Translations under genes and position numbers: made by a program
Part shown: positions 5,460 to 54,231 of the stretch, piece by piece
Layout of the letters: every line of letters starts with the position of its first letter
Position numbering within the stretch: position 1 is the stretch's first letter
The notes under the pieces: generated by a model
Databases searched by the model: none
Told to the model about the DNA's origin: nothing
What the model saw: the letters and a program-made list of their open reading frames with translations, nothing else
Origin: a virus
DNA: 64,000 nucleotides
Strand: one strand, 5' to 3'
IMG/VR virus record: IMGVR_UViG_3300014720_000031
Location: 2,881-66,880 of that record

Positions 5460-6536
5460 ATGGCTAATAGAAATAGAGTAATTTATCAATCAGAGGCACT
5501 TTTCGTAGGACCAACAGGAAGTGCTACAGGAGACATCAAACAATTAACTCGTGTCCAAAGTTGTAATTATAGTTTTAACGTTACCCGTCAAGACGTTAAT
5601 CAATTTGGACAACTTGCTGCAATTGATCGTGTAATTTTAGAGCAACCAACAGTAAGTCTAGATTTTAGTTACTATACTAATACAGGAAATAACGAATCTA
5701 ATTTGGGATTATATGTAAATCCTACTGGTGCAGCTTCAATTACTGGCGCACTAGCTCAAATCATGCAAAACGTAGGCGATATTAAAAATTATTACATCCT
5801 TGTTTCTCCAGAAGGCACTGACATCAACAATAACACTGGCGTTATCGACCTAGCAAATACTAGATCAATTGGAATTGGAAATGCTTATCTTTCTTCATAC
5901 TCTTTTGAAGCAGCCGTAGGAAGTTTCCCAACAAATACAGTTAATGTTCAAGCATATAACATGCGTTTTTATGGCGCTTCTACAGGTGAAATTCCAACAA
6001 TAAGTCAAGTAGACGGTTCTAACTTAACCGGTCAATTTGCTATCACTGGAGTAACTACTGGTGGCGGATATTCAGCTCTAAAACCAGGAGACATTAATCT
6101 AACCGTTAGCGGAGCAATTGGTGCTGTAATTGAAGATTTAAAACCTCAAAACGTTTCAATCTCTTTTGATATCGGTAGAGAAGATCTTCAAAAATTGGGA
6201 ACAAAATTTGCATTCGCAAAAGTAATTACTTTCCCATTAACAGCTACAATGACTGTAGATGCTGTACTTGGAGATATCGAAGCAGCAAATCTTGCAACAC
6301 TAGTAAATGGAGATTGCGACAAATATAATTTACAAGTCGCTATCAATGGAGCAGCTTGCGGATCAACTGCAAAGCAAGCTATTAAATACATATTCAAGGG
6401 CGCAAAATTAGATTCACAAGAATTTACAAGCTCAGTAGGCGCCAATAAATCCGTATCATTATCATTCACAACTCAAATTGGTGGACCAACCGATAATGAA
6501 AACGGAGTATTTATCGAAGGGCCAGCAACAACCTAA
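5460..6536 (+). CDS. major tail tube protein (two internally duplicated tube domains)
   Basis: Strong SD (AAGGAG at 5446), beta-strand pattern of tube proteins, followed by a strong terminator and upstream of chaperones and tape measure. Confidence 0.75.
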   Translation: MANRNRVIYQSEALFVGPTGSATGDIKQLTRVQSCNYSFNVTRQDVNQFGQLAAIDRVILEQPTVSLDFSYYTNTGNNESNLGLYVNPTGAASITGALAQIMQNVGDIKNYYILVSPEGTDINNNTGVIDLANTRSIGIGNAYLSSYSFEAAVGSFPTNTVNVQAYNMRFYGASTGEIPTISQVDGSNLTGQFAITGVTTGGGYSALKPGDINLTVSGAIGAVIEDLKPQNVSISFDIGREDLQKLGTKFAFAKVITFPLTATMTVDAVLGDIEAANLATLVNGDCDKYNLQVAINGAACGSTAKQAIKYIFKGAKLDSQEFTSSVGANKSVSLSFTTQIGGPTDNENGVFIEGPATT

Positions 6537-22770: not shown

Positions 22771-23187
22771 ATGGTCTTTCTCTCTTATAACTTATTTCTA
22801 TATAGATACAATAAAGGATATGATGCTAAATTAAATATTTTTAAAAAGCATTTTCCTGGTAAAGACTATTTGCTACCATATAGTCAATTAAGTAAAGATG
22901 AAATTGCTACAAAGATAAAATGTGATGAAAATGAACTAACTGGGCTATTTGTAAAAGATTTAGACTTTATAATGAAAAAATGTAGTGGACTAGCCGTTTT
23001 TCCAACAAAAAACAATTACATTGGACTTGGTACATATTGGGAAATTATCTCGGCAGAGAAATATGGTTTAGAAAAGTTAGTATATAATTCTGAAAAAGAT
23101 ATATTTTATAATAAATTTAAAATTAAAGAAGTTCCAAAGAAAATCAAAAATGCGACATTTTACAAAAAAATTATTTTTTTAGATTAA
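22771..23187 (+). CDS. nucleoside 2-deoxyribosyltransferase-like protein
   Basis: 'DL.FI...C..L.VF......GT.WEI..A...G' pattern of the NDT fold. Confidence 0.45.
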   Translation: MVFLSYNLFLYRYNKGYDAKLNIFKKHFPGKDYLLPYSQLSKDEIATKIKCDENELTGLFVKDLDFIMKKCSGLAVFPTKNNYIGLGTYWEIISAEKYGLEKLVYNSEKDIFYNKFKIKEVPKKIKNATFYKKIIFLD

Positions 23188-24010
23188 TAATTTCTTCTAC
23201 TTTTTTTTCTAGCAAAGCTAATTTATGATCTATTTTAAAAAGAATATCTTCAAACATTTTATTTGCGACTTCATCTTCGATCTCTGGATATGGTAAATCT
23301 AAATAAGGTATCTTTTTATCTATAATATAAAATACTTCATTATCTTTATTTTTCTTAGCAAATTGGCTTTTTGTTTTTATTAATATTTTATTCGTAACGA
23401 CTTTACCAGTTTTAATTTCATATGGAAGATTATTAAGGAGATGAAGGACCATAAATCCATCCCCATGAGTTACGTCTTTGATAAAGTTAGATTGAAAATT
23501 TTTTACATTAGTTTTTTTATAAAAGAAATCTAATAAAATTTTAGCACCATTTTCACTAATAAAATAAGCATTTTCTTCTGGAGGTTCAAAATAAGCTCCC
23601 TTTTGTAATATTTCGAACTCGATTTGATCGTCTTTTATATCAGTTATTATGATTGATGTTTTTCTCAAAGGATCATTTATCTCTTTATCTAAAACAAATT
23701 TTTGATTTTTGAATATATTACCACTTTTTTCTATCACTTTAGTATGCCCAAAGAATTCATATTCATCGTAATATATATCTATATATTCATTATTTACTAT
23801 ATCACTAGAAGTCTCAAAAATATGTATTTTATCTATAGACTCTAAATTTTTAAAATTCTTTTCTATTCTTATAGTTTCAAAGTCTTCAATTTTAATAGAA
23901 GTAAAATCTGAATCGAATACCATAAACATATTCTTTCTAATTGGTATATCAGAAATATTTGCATGAATTAATATTCTACCGTCTTTTATAGAAGATGTAT
24001 ATCTTTGCAT
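23171..24010 (-). CDS. hypothetical protein
   Basis: 279-aa ORF with C-terminal coiled coil; TATAAT 6 nt before the ATG. Confidence 0.6.
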   Translation of the reverse strand: MQRYTSSIKDGRILIHANISDIPIRKNMFMVFDSDFTSIKIEDFETIRIEKNFKNLESIDKIHIFETSSDIVNNEYIDIYYDEYEFFGHTKVIEKSGNIFKNQKFVLDKEINDPLRKTSIIITDIKDDQIEFEILQKGAYFEPPEENAYFISENGAKILLDFFYKKTNVKNFQSNFIKDVTHGDGFMVLHLLNNLPYEIKTGKVVTNKILIKTKSQFAKKNKDNEVFYIIDKKIPYLDLPYPEIEDEVANKMFEDILFKIDHKLALLEKKVEEIINLKK

Positions 24011-24017
24011 TATAATA

Positions 24018-24860
24018 TTATATGTGATATTTTAGACTTATTCTAGAATTTATTATATCATTTGTTCTTAGTGAAAAATTCTTACCAACAAGATATCCAC
24101 TTTTTAAATTCATAGATATTTTGGCATCTCCAGACCATGGACTCGCGTAATTAATATTAGTATTGTTAATTAAGCTATTTATATTCCTTATATTCATATC
24201 GTATGTATTTAACTCGACAAAAAGATCGATTTGTTCTTCATTATAAACTACTCTGTGTGGATATGTCTTTTCTAATGTATATATTGGTTGAACATCAGCC
24301 TTATAGGATAGGTCAATTTTTCTAATATCATGACTAGAAAATTCATTTGAATTATCTTGAAATATTAAAGTTGTAGAAGATCCATGAGAATAGAAATTTT
24401 GCTGATTGACACCGACATCGTAAGAATCTACTCCAAGTGTTCCATTGAATTGACTATTTGTAACACTATAAAATACAAACTCTGCCTGAGACGATATCAT
24501 ATTGTCTGGATCTGCTGAAATATTATATGATCTTAAGTAGCCACTATTAAATATAGCATTCCCACATGTTATTTTAAAATTATCTTTATCTCCTCCAGTT
24601 TTTAATATATTATTAATAAAAATATAATCCTTTGGAGCTTGAGATAGGAATGATACATTTATAACTGCCGCCAAACCATCTGCATTGTTTCCTCTAAAAG
24701 GATGTTTTTGATTGACTATATAAGCAAAGCCAGCATTTGGATTTATTTCTAAAGATATATTTTGAGCGGTAAAATTATACTGATTGTACAAAGCTGGAGC
24801 AATTCCATATTTATTGAAGCTCTGAATTGAAATTGGAAAATTTTTATAAGAATAAAACAT
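24018..24860 (-). CDS. tail-tube-like paralog
   Basis: 'AQNISLEI', 'SGYLRSYNISA' and 'IDLSYKADVQPIYTL' mirror the two-domain pattern of 5460-6536. Confidence 0.5.
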   Translation of the reverse strand: MFYSYKNFPISIQSFNKYGIAPALYNQYNFTAQNISLEINPNAGFAYIVNQKHPFRGNNADGLAAVINVSFLSQAPKDYIFINNILKTGGDKDNFKITCGNAIFNSGYLRSYNISADPDNMISSQAEFVFYSVTNSQFNGTLGVDSYDVGVNQQNFYSHGSSTTLIFQDNSNEFSSHDIRKIDLSYKADVQPIYTLEKTYPHRVVYNEEQIDLFVELNTYDMNIRNINSLINNTNINYASPWSGDAKISMNLKSGYLVGKNFSLRTNDIINSRISLKYHI

Positions 24861-25672
24861 TAATAGAATTTAGTGAATCTTCTTCTTGTAGAAGTAATTC
24901 CATCAACAGAGCTTGTACCCTCTATTGTAACGCTTTGCGCTCCGCTCATAACTACTGTATAGGTTACTCCTGGGCAACAAATTGCTTCTAAAGCAAATGT
25001 AAGAATTCTTGAATCACCTGTATATATTACTCTTCTATATAATGCTTCTGACATTTCAAACTCTTCTGATGCGCCATTAAATTTTATTAGTCTTGGATCA
25101 ATTCTATTTAATATTTTTACTGGTAAATATTCTGCTCTAAAACTATATGACATATTAAATAGATTAGAATAGTCTTCTATATTTCCTAAATAAGAATTTG
25201 GAAATGCAGTCATTGCGGCTTTTGATCCATGTAGAAAGTCTGCGTCTAAATTTTGACCAACTGTATACATTCCAATTTGTCCAGTAGGAGTATTAAACGT
25301 GAAGAAAGAGGCTTGAGCATTAACTATTCTATCTGGCTCAACTGTAAAAGAAAAACTATCTAATAAGCAATTTGTATATCTAAGACCACCGATATCTATA
25401 TCACCACTTGGAGCAATATCTGTTAGGTTATTCTTCATGTTATCTATTAAAGTTTTAATAGGATCATCATTTTGAATATTATATTGAAATGATACATTAT
25501 GAGTAACTACATCATTAGGAACTTGGCTATAATAAGCTTGTCTTTTGCCGAGAGACTTGACTGGTGTTATATTATTAGTTGTTGAAAAAGTAATATTTGT
25601 TACAGGCATTGCTCCAGTTATACCATTACATATAAATCTAACTGGGGTATATTTAAAAGAATATATGCTCAT
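24860..25672 (-). CDS. tail-tube-like paralog
   Basis: 'NITPVKSLGK', 'CLLDSFSFTV' and 'SGAQ...TSSVDG' match tube motifs (GAKLDSQEFTSSVG). Confidence 0.55.
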   Translation of the reverse strand: MSIYSFKYTPVRFICNGITGAMPVTNITFSTTNNITPVKSLGKRQAYYSQVPNDVVTHNVSFQYNIQNDDPIKTLIDNMKNNLTDIAPSGDIDIGGLRYTNCLLDSFSFTVEPDRIVNAQASFFTFNTPTGQIGMYTVGQNLDADFLHGSKAAMTAFPNSYLGNIEDYSNLFNMSYSFRAEYLPVKILNRIDPRLIKFNGASEEFEMSEALYRRVIYTGDSRILTFALEAICCPGVTYTVVMSGAQSVTIEGTSSVDGITSTRRRFTKFY

Positions 25673-25681
25673 TTTATTATA

Positions 25682-25687
25682 TTACAC
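25682..25687 (-). promoter_or_regulatory. GTGTAA putative late-promoter motif
   Basis: AGTGTAATATAATAAA-ATG; 9 nt to the start at 25672. Confidence 0.6.
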
Positions 25688-25720
25688 TGTTATTTTTTCT
25701 AAAAGAAGATTAAATTGATT

Positions 25721-25967
25721 AGCCACTTTCCTCTGCTCATACGGCTTAGTCCGGTGTTCATTTTTATTTATAAATAAATTAGATATTTAGCCAATCTATC
25801 GCCGATTGCTCGGTGTCCTCCCAATTCTAAAAGTCCTAAGACTACATAGAAAAATTAAGTCTAATAGATCGTTTATCAGCTTAGGGCCTTGGTTAGGCTT
25901 TTTGGGCCTTTTTGAATGTATTTCGGAGATATTCCCTCTGTCCACTCGTTCCTCGGCTTGTCACCTT
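25721..25967 (-). ncRNA. putative structured non-coding RNA (exon of the group I ribozyme, possibly circular)
   Basis: Locally GC-richer with no credible ORF. Hairpins CCGA-GCAA-UCGG, CCUAAG/CUUAGG and UAGAU/AUCUA; bounded by predicted splice sites. Confidence 0.5.
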
Positions 25968-26234
25968 CAATTTATTTAATATCTTTAATTTTAAATAAAG
26001 ATTTTCTTATTGTTACCAATAAGATTGGACTATGTCTTATTTATATTTTATATAAATTTGGGCGCTCGTGTCCTTGTTATTCCTGCGGAAGGTCAAAGAT
26101 TAGTCTCTACACCTTCTTATATCATTTTTAAACCGCGATATAAGCTTGGCTCGGCGTTACCCTATATTATATGTCAAAGAACTTTTATTTTATATAGGAC
26201 TTTCACCGAATTCACCCAATACGGCCATAAGGTG
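25968..26234 (-). ncRNA. group I intron/ribozyme core (IA-like)
   Basis: P3 UUGGGUG/CGCCCAA, P4 UUCGGUG/CGCCGAG, P5 CCUAUAU/AUAUAGG, P6a CUUAUAUC/GAUAUAAG, R GGUGUAGAGACUA, S AAGACAUAGUCC, P8, P9 CUUAUUG-GUAA-CAAUAAG, P9.1, terminal G at 25968. Confidence 0.88.
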
Positions 26235-26240
26235 TTACAC
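26235..26240 (-). promoter_or_regulatory. GTGTAA motif immediately upstream of the ribozyme
   Basis: AGTGTAAC on the minus strand, 14 nt after the stop of the large mucin-like gene. Confidence 0.45.
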
Positions 26241-26254
26241 TTGTATAGTCCCGA

Positions 26255-29200
26255 TTAGATTGTTATTGCGTATTTATTTGCTAAATATGTATTTACTGCT
26301 GATATTTGCGATGGGCTTAATTCTTTATTATATATTAATACTTCAGCTAAATTACCCTGCCAGTAATATTGTCCTCCCCAATTTTGAACCCCTAAGAATG
26401 GTCCACCATTTGGGAAAGAATTAGTATATGTGCTGCTACTATATGATGGAGCAAGAAAATCTGGATAAAAAGATATGAAGCCTGTATTATTTATAGCTAT
26501 ATATCTATTTTGATTACTCGACATAGTTGTTAATATATGCCATCCAGTTATCGCATTTGGGGCAGCAAAATAATCTCTATAGGTATAAGCGAATCCATCA
26601 TAAATTTGACCATCTTCCCAAGCGTAGTGACTACCTCCGTCAATATTATTACCAAAATCTCCAAATACAGATCCAAGTTGTTTATTCAAGTAATCTGAGA
26701 CTGTTCTTGCGACTGCAAATGCTGTAGCTCCTGTTGTTGAACCCGTGCTTAGTATCGCTGGCAAATCTATGAAATTCGATCCATCAAAAATAACCGAACC
26801 ATAGCCATTAATCAAATGATTAGAAGCTTGGGAAAAACTTGCGCCAAATATTTCTGGAGAATTTTGAGCATTACTTGAATCAACAAATGGATTCTCTGGT
26901 TTTAACCAATAAACTAAATTATTTAAGATATTAAATCCAGGTAATGGGGTTGTTGTAGTGGTGCTTGTTGTAGTGGTGCTTGTTGTAGTAGTACTTGTAG
27001 TGGCTGCAGGAGTTGCACAACTTAAATAATAAGTATATATTGGAGATGTACCTTGACACAATTGACTTTGGGTAGTTACTATGACTTTGACTATAGAATT
27101 ATTTAAATTATTTAAATTTGATACAGTTCCGCCCCCATTGAAACCTATTGGACCAGAATTAAAAATTAAATTAGTCCCAGCGTAATCATATAATGAAAAT
27201 ACTAAAATTTCATCAGAATTATCAACTGTAAATGTAAAATCAAATGTTCCTAATGCGTTTGTGTCAACATATCTTGTATGTATGCATGTATTATTTATTG
27301 TCCAGTTCGAATCATTATAATCATAATATGTAATTGCACAATTTCCTGCCAAAGCACTAACTGGAGTAGTTGAAGTTGTGGTTGTTGTAGTGGTTGTCGT
27401 ACTAGTGGTCGTCGTAGTAGTACTTGTAGGACCAACAGTGCCAATTATTTTGAATGCTTTTGAATTATTTTCATTATTATAATAGTTTGATAATCTATAA
27501 GTACCATCCGAAGTTATATTAGTATTATCGACTGAAGTGTTTGAAGTAGTTTTAATTCTAAATTGAATTTGACCCATTAGACCGCCCCAACTTAATTCAA
27601 TGTTTTCATTAGAGAAATTATCAGAATTCAAAGACCATTCATATAATGGACCACCTTCAAAATTATTTAAACTAGAATATAATCCTAAGTTCTTTGGTCC
27701 TTTATTTGAAGAACGATTTCCAACCAATATTCTTTTTAATGTAGCTTCATATCCATTTTCAATATTAAAACCAAAAGAAACATAATCATTTGTGTCCTGA
27801 CTCCAAGCTTTAGAGCAAAATGAGTTTGATCCAGATGCCGCCAAAAGGCCTGGGCCTCTTTGTAAATCTAGAGCAGTAATATGATTTGAACCAATTCCAG
27901 TGACTAGATTTTCATCTCCATTTCTACCATCGAGCTCCCAAGCAACTAATGCTGGACAACTTAATTGATAATTATAATAAACAAAAGGCGCACAATCATC
28001 TGAATTTTGTACTTTTATATAAACTAAAGCATTATTCGCTTCTGATGTTTTTACAAATCCTACAGATGCAGAGGTTGATGTTGGTCCAAAAGGATAAAGT
28101 ATATTATTATAATTAACATAACCACTAATTTGGTAACCTTCTGAATAAAATGCCAAAGAAGCAAGTCCTTGAGAATCTCCATCAAGACTAATATTTCTTT
28201 TATGTTGACAACCATAAGATACCCAATCTAAATCATTTGTTTCATTGTATATAACATCGCATTCACCTTCTGTTACAGGAACAGGAGGAGGAGTCGTTGT
28301 CGTTGTAGTCGTTGTTGTTGTAGTAGTTGTGGTTGTTGTTGTCGTTGTAGTAGTGGTTGTAGTCGTTGTGAATCTTTCGCAAAATATAGAATAAAAGTAC
28401 CAAGCATTAATTGAGCAATCTATTGTCGAATCTATTAGTACATATACTGTAGCATATTCTGGATCTCCAGCTATTCTTTCGAAAAGAACATTTCCATAAT
28501 ATCCTGAGCTTTCTGTTCCTAAAGCGACAACAAGTCTATTACCAAGATATACATAGAAATTTAAATTAATATTATTTTCTGCTCCCCAATTGAAGCGTAA
28601 ATTGCCCAAATCGCTTCCTATAAATATTCTTCTTCCATCTAAGCATCCTCCACTAACCCAATTTGGATTATCTACTTCATAATAATTATTACCACAAGTT
28701 CCATCTGGTAATAATGGAAATGGGGTAGTTGTAGTAGTCGTAGTGGTGGTAGTAGTCGTGGTAGTCGTGGTCGTAGTTGTAGTAGACGAAGTCAAATCAT
28801 AAAAATATATATATTTTTGTCCTACAAATAGAATTTTTGATCCAAGATACTCAGCGGTTACAGATATCCAATTATCTAGATATGGTAATGTGGCAATTGA
28901 ATAATTAGGTAAATTATAAGATGGTAACGGAACAAAATTTGTTTTAGAAATTAAAAATACATTTGTTTTTAAATCATTGGTCCTAGATTTTTTAACTGCT
29001 ATGACCCAAGTACCTCCTCCTGGATTAATATCAAAATTTGTCCACGCTACTTCTGTCAATTCGTAATCTAATTCAAATCCAGCTGATGCCCAATTTTCTC
29101 CAAATCCTGAGAAATAAAATTTACCATTATTATTTCCAAAAGCATTTATTGTTGGAGTATCATTAAATAAACGCATTTCTGTTTCGCCCACGTTATTCTC

Positions 29201-54219: not shown

Positions 54220-54231
54220 ATAATTTTACAC

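Follow-up and report, generated by a model that had tools for sequence, protein, structure and literature searches.

A stand-alone group I ribozyme of a freshwater phage with a predicted 5' splice site downstream of its 3' splice site

Bacterial and phage group I ribozymes are known as introns within genes, and the back-to-front layout in which such a ribozyme makes an RNA circle is regarded as a laboratory invention (the PIE and STS designs), with one exception in coral mitochondria. What, then, is a group I ribozyme that lies between two phage genes and interrupts neither? The question is raised by a 64,000-nucleotide (nt) stretch of viral DNA (positions 2,881 to 66,880 of the IMG/VR virus record IMGVR_UViG_3300014720_000031), here called the window. 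An earlier note, made from the letters of this DNA, had described a group I ribozyme at 25700-26254 and proposed that its guide pairs with a site beyond the 3' splice site, with a circular RNA as the possible product. Having compared the element with its relatives, we lean slightly towards reading it as a stand-alone, ribozyme-first group I unit, circularly permuted at the P1 loop, that would perform both splicing steps. Positions below are those of the window, and features lie on its minus strand unless marked (+).

All the sequence tests at hand identify the element as a group I ribozyme. At 26006-26266 the Rfam group I model RF00028 was matched from end to end (model positions 1-253 of 253), scoring 73.3 bits where the gathering score is 50 (E 1e-16), and a full-length score above the curated threshold places the element among the group I catalytic RNAs. 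It is the single group I match in the 66.9-kb genome record. Between 25400 and 26400, no other Rfam family was found at E<=10, and hence no aptamer or riboswitch beside the ribozyme; neither a lariat-capping (GIR1) nor a circularly permuted group II model matched, in the window at the gathering score or in 25400-26400 at E<=10. The catalytic core (25981-26219, from the RF00028 match and an RNAalifold prediction) comprises P3, P4-P6a, P7 with the G-binding site, P7.1/7.2, P8, P9 and P9.1. As read from the sequence, P3 joins 26219-26213 to 26064-26058, P4 joins about 26209-26204 to 26156-26150, P7 is formed by GAGACUA (26107-26101) and UAGUCC (26032-26027), P9 with its GUAA loop occupies 26023-26006 and P9.1 occupies 26002-25981. 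The full core described in the earlier note, with its helices and motifs, is borne out, and the RF00028 search that the note had suggested as a check gave a match above the gathering score. An A/U-only tail closing in a terminal G (25968-25980; omega-G, G25968) marks the predicted 3' splice site, as judged from the point where similarity to the relative L002 ends and from G-free runs in other relatives. In the Rfam alignment, the P1/P2 part (26266-26227) had low posterior probability and several non-standard pairs, which was a first hint that a normal P1 and P2 are absent.

The surroundings of the core are not those of an intron. The open reading frame (ORF) upstream, of 1400 amino acids (aa), ends with a stop codon at 26257-26255, and the next gene (270 aa) begins at 25672. 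The ribozyme follows that stop codon and splits neither an ORF nor a tRNA; the window yielded no tRNA, and inside the ribozyme no ORF of >=60 aa lies on its own strand. A homing endonuclease gene is absent, and with no ORF inside the ribozyme there is no sign of homing. ORF and tRNA scans thus agree with the earlier note on all these points, and because nothing is interrupted, the element falls outside the usual definition of an intron.

Where, then, would its 5' splice site be? About 25 distinct members of the subfamily, designated by L numbers, were gathered from freshwater viral and metagenome contigs by pattern scans and an nhmmer profile. Exact duplicates were merged (L192 with L066, L208 with L159, L203 with L196, L211 with L119, L207 with L151 and L214 with L204). 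In the window, the internal guide is GGCCGU (26221-26226), separated from P3 by a single A and without a P2. At every one of 20 loci the guide is the 6-mer adjoining the single A before P3, and its first G is invariant. The candidate site was defined independently of the guide, as the last GG(N0-2)[U/C] followed by AA[A/C/U] between ribozyme and downstream start codon; for L197 and L202 the limit of the search was set by hand. The 20 units omit L194, L201, L206 and L051, whose contigs end before the spacer, and L195, whose contig ends before the guide.

All 20 complete units, and all 15 distinct guide/site combinations, show pairing of guide positions 1-4 with the downstream site. Pair 1 is G.U in 14 combinations and G-C in one (by loci, G.U in 19 of 20, with G-C in L202); pair 2 splits into 10 G-C and 5 C-G, pair 3 into 14 C-G and one U-A, and pair 4 into 12 C-G, two U-A and one A-U. 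Positions 5-6 pair in some combinations only. When sites were shuffled among guides, the observed contiguous pairing was reached in 1 of 20,000 trials (p 5e-5), and the total number of pairs gave p 7e-4. The guide/site versions are GGCC/GGCU, GCCC/GGGU, GCCU/AGGU, GCCA/UGGU and GGUCC/GGACU; a sixth, GGGC/GCCU, occurs in L226, one of five loci (with L219, L223, L217 and L225) that were judged by eye and stand outside the permutation test. When a maximum-likelihood tree was inferred from the core with the guide columns removed, it required 5 version changes, 4 being the possible minimum; the versions have switched independently at least 4-5 times.

The helix that defines P1, guide against 5' splice site with a U.G at the cut, is therefore present with its partner downstream instead of upstream, as the earlier note had claimed; the covariation between guide and site that it had named as a test was found in the form of coordinated changes. 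In 20 of 20 units the terminal G comes before the predicted 5' splice site (in the window, G25968 precedes U25721 by 247 nt), and both splice sites would lie on one transcript. Given the covariation, we consider a downstream cut in a permuted layout to be likely.

Two sites compete in the window. GUGGCU (25721-25726), followed by AAUC, forms six contiguous pairs with GGCCGU, three of them wobbles, and has the U.G at the predicted cut between U25721 and A25720. It is the positional homologue of the sites of L002 and L121 (43-48 nt before the ATG, with AAU after the cut). UUGGCU (25789-25794), with a cut after U25789 and a spacer of 179 nt, forms five contiguous pairs and is followed by AAAU, the downstream context commonest among the relatives. 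We take U25721, the site named in the earlier note, as primary and U25789 as a real alternative, the two being indistinguishable from sequence.

A more familiar arrangement would be an intron in an untranslated region, with the 5' splice site at GGGACU (cut after 26247) and the 3' splice site after G25968, giving a linear spliced RNA. The order GGGACU, AU, an AAGUG-UAA-CACCUU hairpin, AU and GGCCGU does have a P1-like geometry, Rfam places P1/P2 there with low confidence, and L066 has an upstream candidate (AGGGU before the cut, 29 nt before P3). However, only 4 of the 6 positions pair at GGGACU, and not contiguously. Upstream sites with >=4 contiguous pairs were present in 4 of 20 loci and at a conserved place in none, the other 16 having no upstream candidate within 120 nt; in the subfamily (about 25 homologues), no P1 5' strand upstream and no P2 were found in any member. 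Several relatives (L023, L159, L066, L215, L196 and L198) lie in divergent intergenic, promoter-bearing regions with no same-strand gene or transcript upstream, and the guide covaries with the downstream site, not with upstream sequence. Of the readings that we weighed, this conventional one is the least probable. As a separate observation, L198 also carries a partial tRNA at its contig end (3181-3233 of that contig, minus strand; 36.3 bits).

What precedes the guide is a GTGTAA motif (26235-26240 in the window), a candidate phage promoter or transcript-start signal by its conservation and placement. GTGTA[AT] lies 5' of the guide in 23 of 23 subfamily members and in 0 of 47 more distant group I matches, which have ordinary P2-type hairpins upstream instead. 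From the motif to the first G of the guide there are exactly 14 nt in 12 of 20 loci and 16 or 19 nt in others; in a second clade the distance is 28-36 nt and includes a leader hairpin. The window has 14 copies of GTGTAA, of which 8 lie within 36 nt 5' of an ORF start in the correct orientation and a ninth precedes the ribozyme; since about 1.6% of strand-specific positions satisfy this placement, the arrangement, judged by position, is far from random. The signal is in the placement and not the number, GTGTAAT occurring 8 times in the window against 8.0 expected by chance. The eight copies, GTGTAA(T/A) at 2971, 6590, 8923 and 34384 (+) and at 54231, 32773, 30455 and 25687 (minus strand), are found 6-36 nt 5' of ORF starts, and no Shine-Dalgarno-like sequence was seen at these eight starts. 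GTGTAA probably serves virion-type genes as a phage-specific promoter or start signal. Were it to work like a -10 element, transcription would start at the guide or immediately before it, which is also where laboratory ribozymes of the L-21 type begin.

An RNA starting near its guide might alternatively act in trans, cutting or trans-splicing other RNAs that carry GGCU followed by AA at the cut. Trans-cleaving and trans-splicing group I ribozymes are designed with the guide at their 5' end, as described in PMC10457212, and two window genes, at 5460 and 8956 (+), have ATGGCTAA at their start codons, a complement of the guide with U.G at the would-be cut. Against this, every complete unit has a matching site in cis, at a conserved place and changing together with the guide, and starts encoding Met-Ala-Lys/Asn are common, so that the two ATGGCTAA matches may be chance. 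We regard action in trans as very improbable.

Is the permuted unit still maintained, or is it a decaying relic, a one-time intron now inactive and deprived of its 5' exon context? A relic would fit an element that interrupts nothing and has no homing endonuclease, that is missing from some relatives and that has lost the U of its site in one of them (L202). The ribozyme itself gives a different picture. In a 19-sequence alignment from GTGTAA to the terminal G, RNAalifold recovered P3, P4, P5, P6, P6a, P7.1, P8 and P9, with compensatory changes on both sides in 22 of the 46 predicted pairs; P3, P6a, P8, P9 and also P1 are upheld by such changes. Neither the strands of the catalytic P7 nor the J8/7 region vary among the 19 sequences; P7 crosses P3, which places it beyond RNAalifold prediction, and its invariant strands carry no covariation information. 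In 15 of 15 locus pairs, ribozyme identity exceeds that of the first 240 nt of the downstream coding sequence (for example, 0.92 against 0.78 for L066/L215). Because of the compensatory pairs and the conservation above the adjacent coding sequence, comparative analysis indicates that the ribozyme is under selection, and we consider a relic very improbable.

Some relatives have the gap between the genes but no ribozyme. Homologues of the 270-aa gene were found in four viral contigs (L002-L005). In L003-L005, which have no ribozyme, the gap between the genes is just 17 nt (stop, TG, GTGTAAT, 8 nt, ATG), and because of these ribozyme-free relatives the cassette is, on comparative grounds, optional. 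In L002 the same gap is filled by a ribozyme about 83% identical to that of the window. Similarity between the two begins at the guide and ends exactly at the terminal G25968, and the flanks on both sides are unrelated.

With the layout and the P1 pairing supported by comparative covariation, we infer the start of the transcript, the chemistry and the circle as follows. By pairing with the downstream site, the guide GGCCGU would create P1, with its usual U.G wobble at the cut. P7 would bind free guanosine or GTP, which would attack the site, releasing the downstream RNA towards the 270-aa gene and leaving a 3'-OH on the U. This 3'-OH would then attack the bond after the terminal G, yielding a circle of 247 nt (or 179 nt) and a free linear ribozyme. 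The candidate circular RNA is the spacer, or 'exon', at 25721-25967, bounded by omega-G and the P1 site. It is 247 nt long and non-coding, with a G+C content of 0.40 against 0.30 for the window.

Signs of the second step were sought at the ends of the spacer. In 17 of 20 loci, the 11-17 nt before the terminal G contain no further G (the G-free run measures 33 nt in L023, 5 nt in L200 and 8 nt in L204), G making up 17-24% of the ribozyme. The terminal G is mostly the last base of AUG or UUG; omega-G offsets were set by eye, and the tails of L200 and L204 contain an earlier G. In two spacer classes of five sequences each, RNAalifold predicted a closing stem that joins the spacer ends a few nt from each splice site, with compensatory changes in 13 of 19 and 11 of 31 pairs. 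Circle formation is plausible on these comparative grounds. One contig of 132,273 bases carries two units (L222/L200 and L226) with spacers of different classes, before different genes and with the versions GGCC/GGCU and GGGC/GCCU.

Other pairings that the earlier note had adduced for the second step fared less well, and they are among the points that weigh against a circularising unit. P10 was to be formed by CACCUU (26229-26234) and AAGGUG (25967-25962), directly 3' of G25968. The 6-bp complement is perfect in the window, and across the family own-locus pairing was no better than in cross-locus controls (mean 3.95 against 3.81 pairs, p 0.30), so P10 finds no support as a family feature. If GTGTAA is -10-like, CACCUU may moreover be untranscribed. 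The 8-bp inverted repeat said to bring the splice sites together is exact, UCAAUUUA (25711-25718) being the reverse complement of UAAAUUGA (25974-25967, across the 3' splice site). It proved specific to the window, and pairing of the tail before omega-G with the sequence after the cut was rejected as a family feature (own 5.05, cross 5.00, p 0.44). Pairing of the exon ends gave p 0.007, a value that counts related loci as independent. P1 itself is short: with 4 conserved pairs, about one four-pair match per locus is expected by chance, so that what carries the argument is the conserved context together with the coordinated changes, and no single match. The window has two candidate cut sites, and in L202, which may be impaired, C replaces U at the cut. 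Although L023 and L002 score 74.4 and 66 bits with RF00028, the Rfam filters passed over relatives: L002 was reported only when a short stretch was searched, and of five subfamily loci searched with Rfam only L023 was reported. Finally, the sequencing runs found to contain window DNA number eight, all of them DNA, with no RNA run among them.

The spacer adds to these objections. It is 86-149 nt long in the relatives and 247 (or 179) nt in the window, with a G+C content of 0.32-0.46 against 0.30 for the genome, and no other part of the unit evolves as fast (0.32-0.62 identity in diverged pairs); its rate exceeds that of the ribozyme and that of the coding sequence. The window spacer resembles no other spacer, including the 98-nt spacer of L002, and as a linear RNA it folds no better than its shuffles (z -0.96). 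Folded as circles, the 20 spacers gave z from -4.1 to +1.6, and none of the 20 has a stop-free frame round the circle. Fast evolution and weak folding speak against a sequence-specific function of the circle and for a constraint on length and end pairing only; the conserved stems within the spacer classes leave a structural role open. The label 'ncRNA system' (a system built on a non-coding RNA) of the earlier note is, with a spacer so poorly conserved, uncertain. A 20-codon ORF (25768-25706, ATG at 25768) runs over the second half of the window spacer and the U25721 site, and in L002 and L121 short frames begin at the NUG of their sites; their starts differ (GUG, AUG and CUG), the peptides are unlike and these short ORFs over P1 sites are probably chance.

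If not the circle, what might be selected? The units occur in three settings. At least 13 loci (L197 by eye) belong to the first, in which the predicted cut lies upstream of a large gene, of unknown family, at a distance of 4-12 nt from its start codon. The leader remaining after the cut would be as short as that after ordinary GTGTAA motifs, and trimming of the message to a very short leader is, from this placement, probably one selected role. In the second (the window, L002, L121, the L119 group, L219 and L223), the unit sits between a large gene and the 270-aa gene, which retains its own GTGTAA 3' of the cut. In the window this second motif, GTGTAAT at 25681-25687, lies downstream of the predicted cut and 8 nt 5' of the ATG (25672), the same place that it keeps in L003-L005. 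In the third (L202 and L195), a terminator-like hairpin follows right after the site. Units of the second and third settings look, by their arrangement, like self-contained, independent cassettes, that of the window because its gene has its own GTGTAAT after the cut. The window cut lies 48 nt before the ATG and 5' of this motif, so leader trimming fails to account for the window copy, a further difficulty for our reading.

The first setting invites the rival that comes closest to our reading: a leader that only cleaves itself, by the same downstream P1 and guanosine attack, with no meaningful circle, selected for forming a 5' end or for separating ribozyme from message. It draws on the cut close to the start codon in the 13 loci, on the lack of family support for P10, on the spacer being the least conserved part and on the failure of all 20 circles to hold a coding frame. 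On the other side, the terminal G and the G-free tail have been retained in all lineages, and similarity between the window and L002 stops exactly at that G. Spacer-end pairing is compensatory in two classes, and there is no message in need of trimming at L202, L195 and the window-type loci. In engineered circularising constructs of the same order, P1 alone suffices, according to PMC10457212. We consider cleavage alone unlikely, if well short of negligible, and keep to the ribozyme-first unit that would also close the circle. The broader proposal that a promoter-driven family in freshwater phages makes circles in infected cells, in orthogonal versions and with the circle or circularising itself selected (e.g. 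as a stable decoy or a late-gene timing device), is doubtful at present.

One sequence outside the guide is shared within a clade. AGUUCUUUGA is invariant in the P5 loop of one clade (26182-26173, the L5 loop, in the window), and in the other (L199, L200, L202, L204, L210, L216 and L197), where P5 is short, AGUUCUUUAA occurs in a hairpin or loop of the 5' leader. Pairing of AGUUCUUUGA with the spacer was rejected, the observed sum being 135 against a shuffled mean of 137. Several viral contigs (L142, L088, L094 and L126) have 4-7 group I-like matches each, a few hundred bases apart, and in L011/L048 two units with repeated flanks are separated by about 400 nt; genes invaded by many introns, or else arrays of ribozymes, could account for such loci.

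The window is part of a 66.9-kb virus record estimated to be 43% complete, with a genome G+C content of 30%, and it belongs to a tailed phage encoding a gpJ-like tail tip protein, a DnaE-type polymerase and a DnaB helicase; the polymerase is less than 32% identical to that of any GenBank phage. Nothing in 50,697 GenBank phage records matched 25600-26400 by blastn, 185,579 prokaryote genomes yielded 0 matches in two pattern scans, and no relative locus came from a protein search that used the C-terminal end of the 1400-aa protein. That protein and the product of the L066 gene are unrelated. PHROGs gave no match for 8 neighbouring proteins, and Pfam none for the 270-aa family or for the 1050-aa gene of L066. 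Three successive genes of 270, 280 and 279 aa (23171-25672) lie 3' of the ribozyme unit; the trio, which has no Pfam or PHROG match, is kept in L002 and L003.

All eight DNA runs in which window DNA is present are lake or freshwater metagenomes. Four of them, compared with the stretch, gave DNA contigs only and no joints. Run X1, which may be the source, covers the whole stretch with 0 differences, and run X2 covers most of it, in pieces, also with 0 differences. Other contigs of X1 and X2 match 26006-26240 only, with 17-22 differences and 8 gaps, and then diverge from the window, indicating a related ribozyme in another genome that shares exactly the span from GTGTAA to P9.

If a conserved phage family does use this layout, nature has reached the same design as engineers, and phages have a self-processing route to messages with very short leaders and a natural source of small circular RNAs of bacterial viruses. 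RNA engineering would gain compact, P2-less ribozymes with interchangeable specificities of 4-6 nt, and 'orphan' group I matches annotated as introns without a host gene would be accounted for.

How does the unit compare with known systems? In permuted intron-exon (PIE) constructs, the T4 td and Anabaena pre-tRNA introns are reportedly split in a peripheral loop, with the halves flanking the exon, and homology arms are said to help. The window unit shares with them a 3' splice site before the 5' splice site and, as predicted, back-splicing to a circular exon, the closing stems of the spacers being comparable to homology arms. It differs in that the ribozyme is in one piece and only the 5' strand of P1 has moved. 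The window layout is that of the engineered STS design, a special case of the permuted intron-exon idea. As set out in PMC10457212, STS consists of guide, ribozyme, terminal G, insert and a U-ending target, gives a scarless circle by two transesterifications and circularises with P1 alone, P10 being dispensable. The order of elements and a P1 whose site lies at the far end of the insert are common to both; STS, by the same source, is man-made, with an IC1 ribozyme that has P2/P2.1 and with kilobase inserts. The window element, whose activity is predicted, is natural and phage-encoded, lacks P2, has P7.1/7.2, carries in its family a non-coding insert of 86-247 nt and is followed by a gene.

Among natural systems, the C. 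difficile leader ribozyme and GIR1 are functional analogues, by comparison, for the shaping of a message 5' end. The 5' untranslated region of Clostridium difficile contains a c-di-GMP-dependent allosteric group I ribozyme whose choice of cleavage site sets the leader (PMC3984707); it reportedly has an upstream aptamer and an upstream 5' splice site, whereas the conserved site of the window family is only downstream. GIR1, derived from group I and located upstream of a gene, makes the 5' end of a message; in the sections of PMC8637638 that describe it, it acts by branching, not by means of a free G, and lacks a comparable guide or P1. The same sections present circularly permuted group II introns as natural stand-alone bacterial ribozymes that produce RNA circles, by another chemistry and with another fold. 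In the literature, supplements aside, we found no natural permuted or ribozyme-first group I element for phages or bacteria. The sole natural permuted group I precursor that we found in print is that of the ND5-717 intron of corallimorpharian mitochondria, which gives a back-spliced circular exon-containing RNA and which its authors claim as the first natural case (Chi et al. 2019; PMC6545197). That intron, by the same text, measures 18-19 kb and lies inside a protein gene whose mRNA is restored, whereas the window element is free-standing, about 260 nt long and phage-borne, and joins no coding exons.

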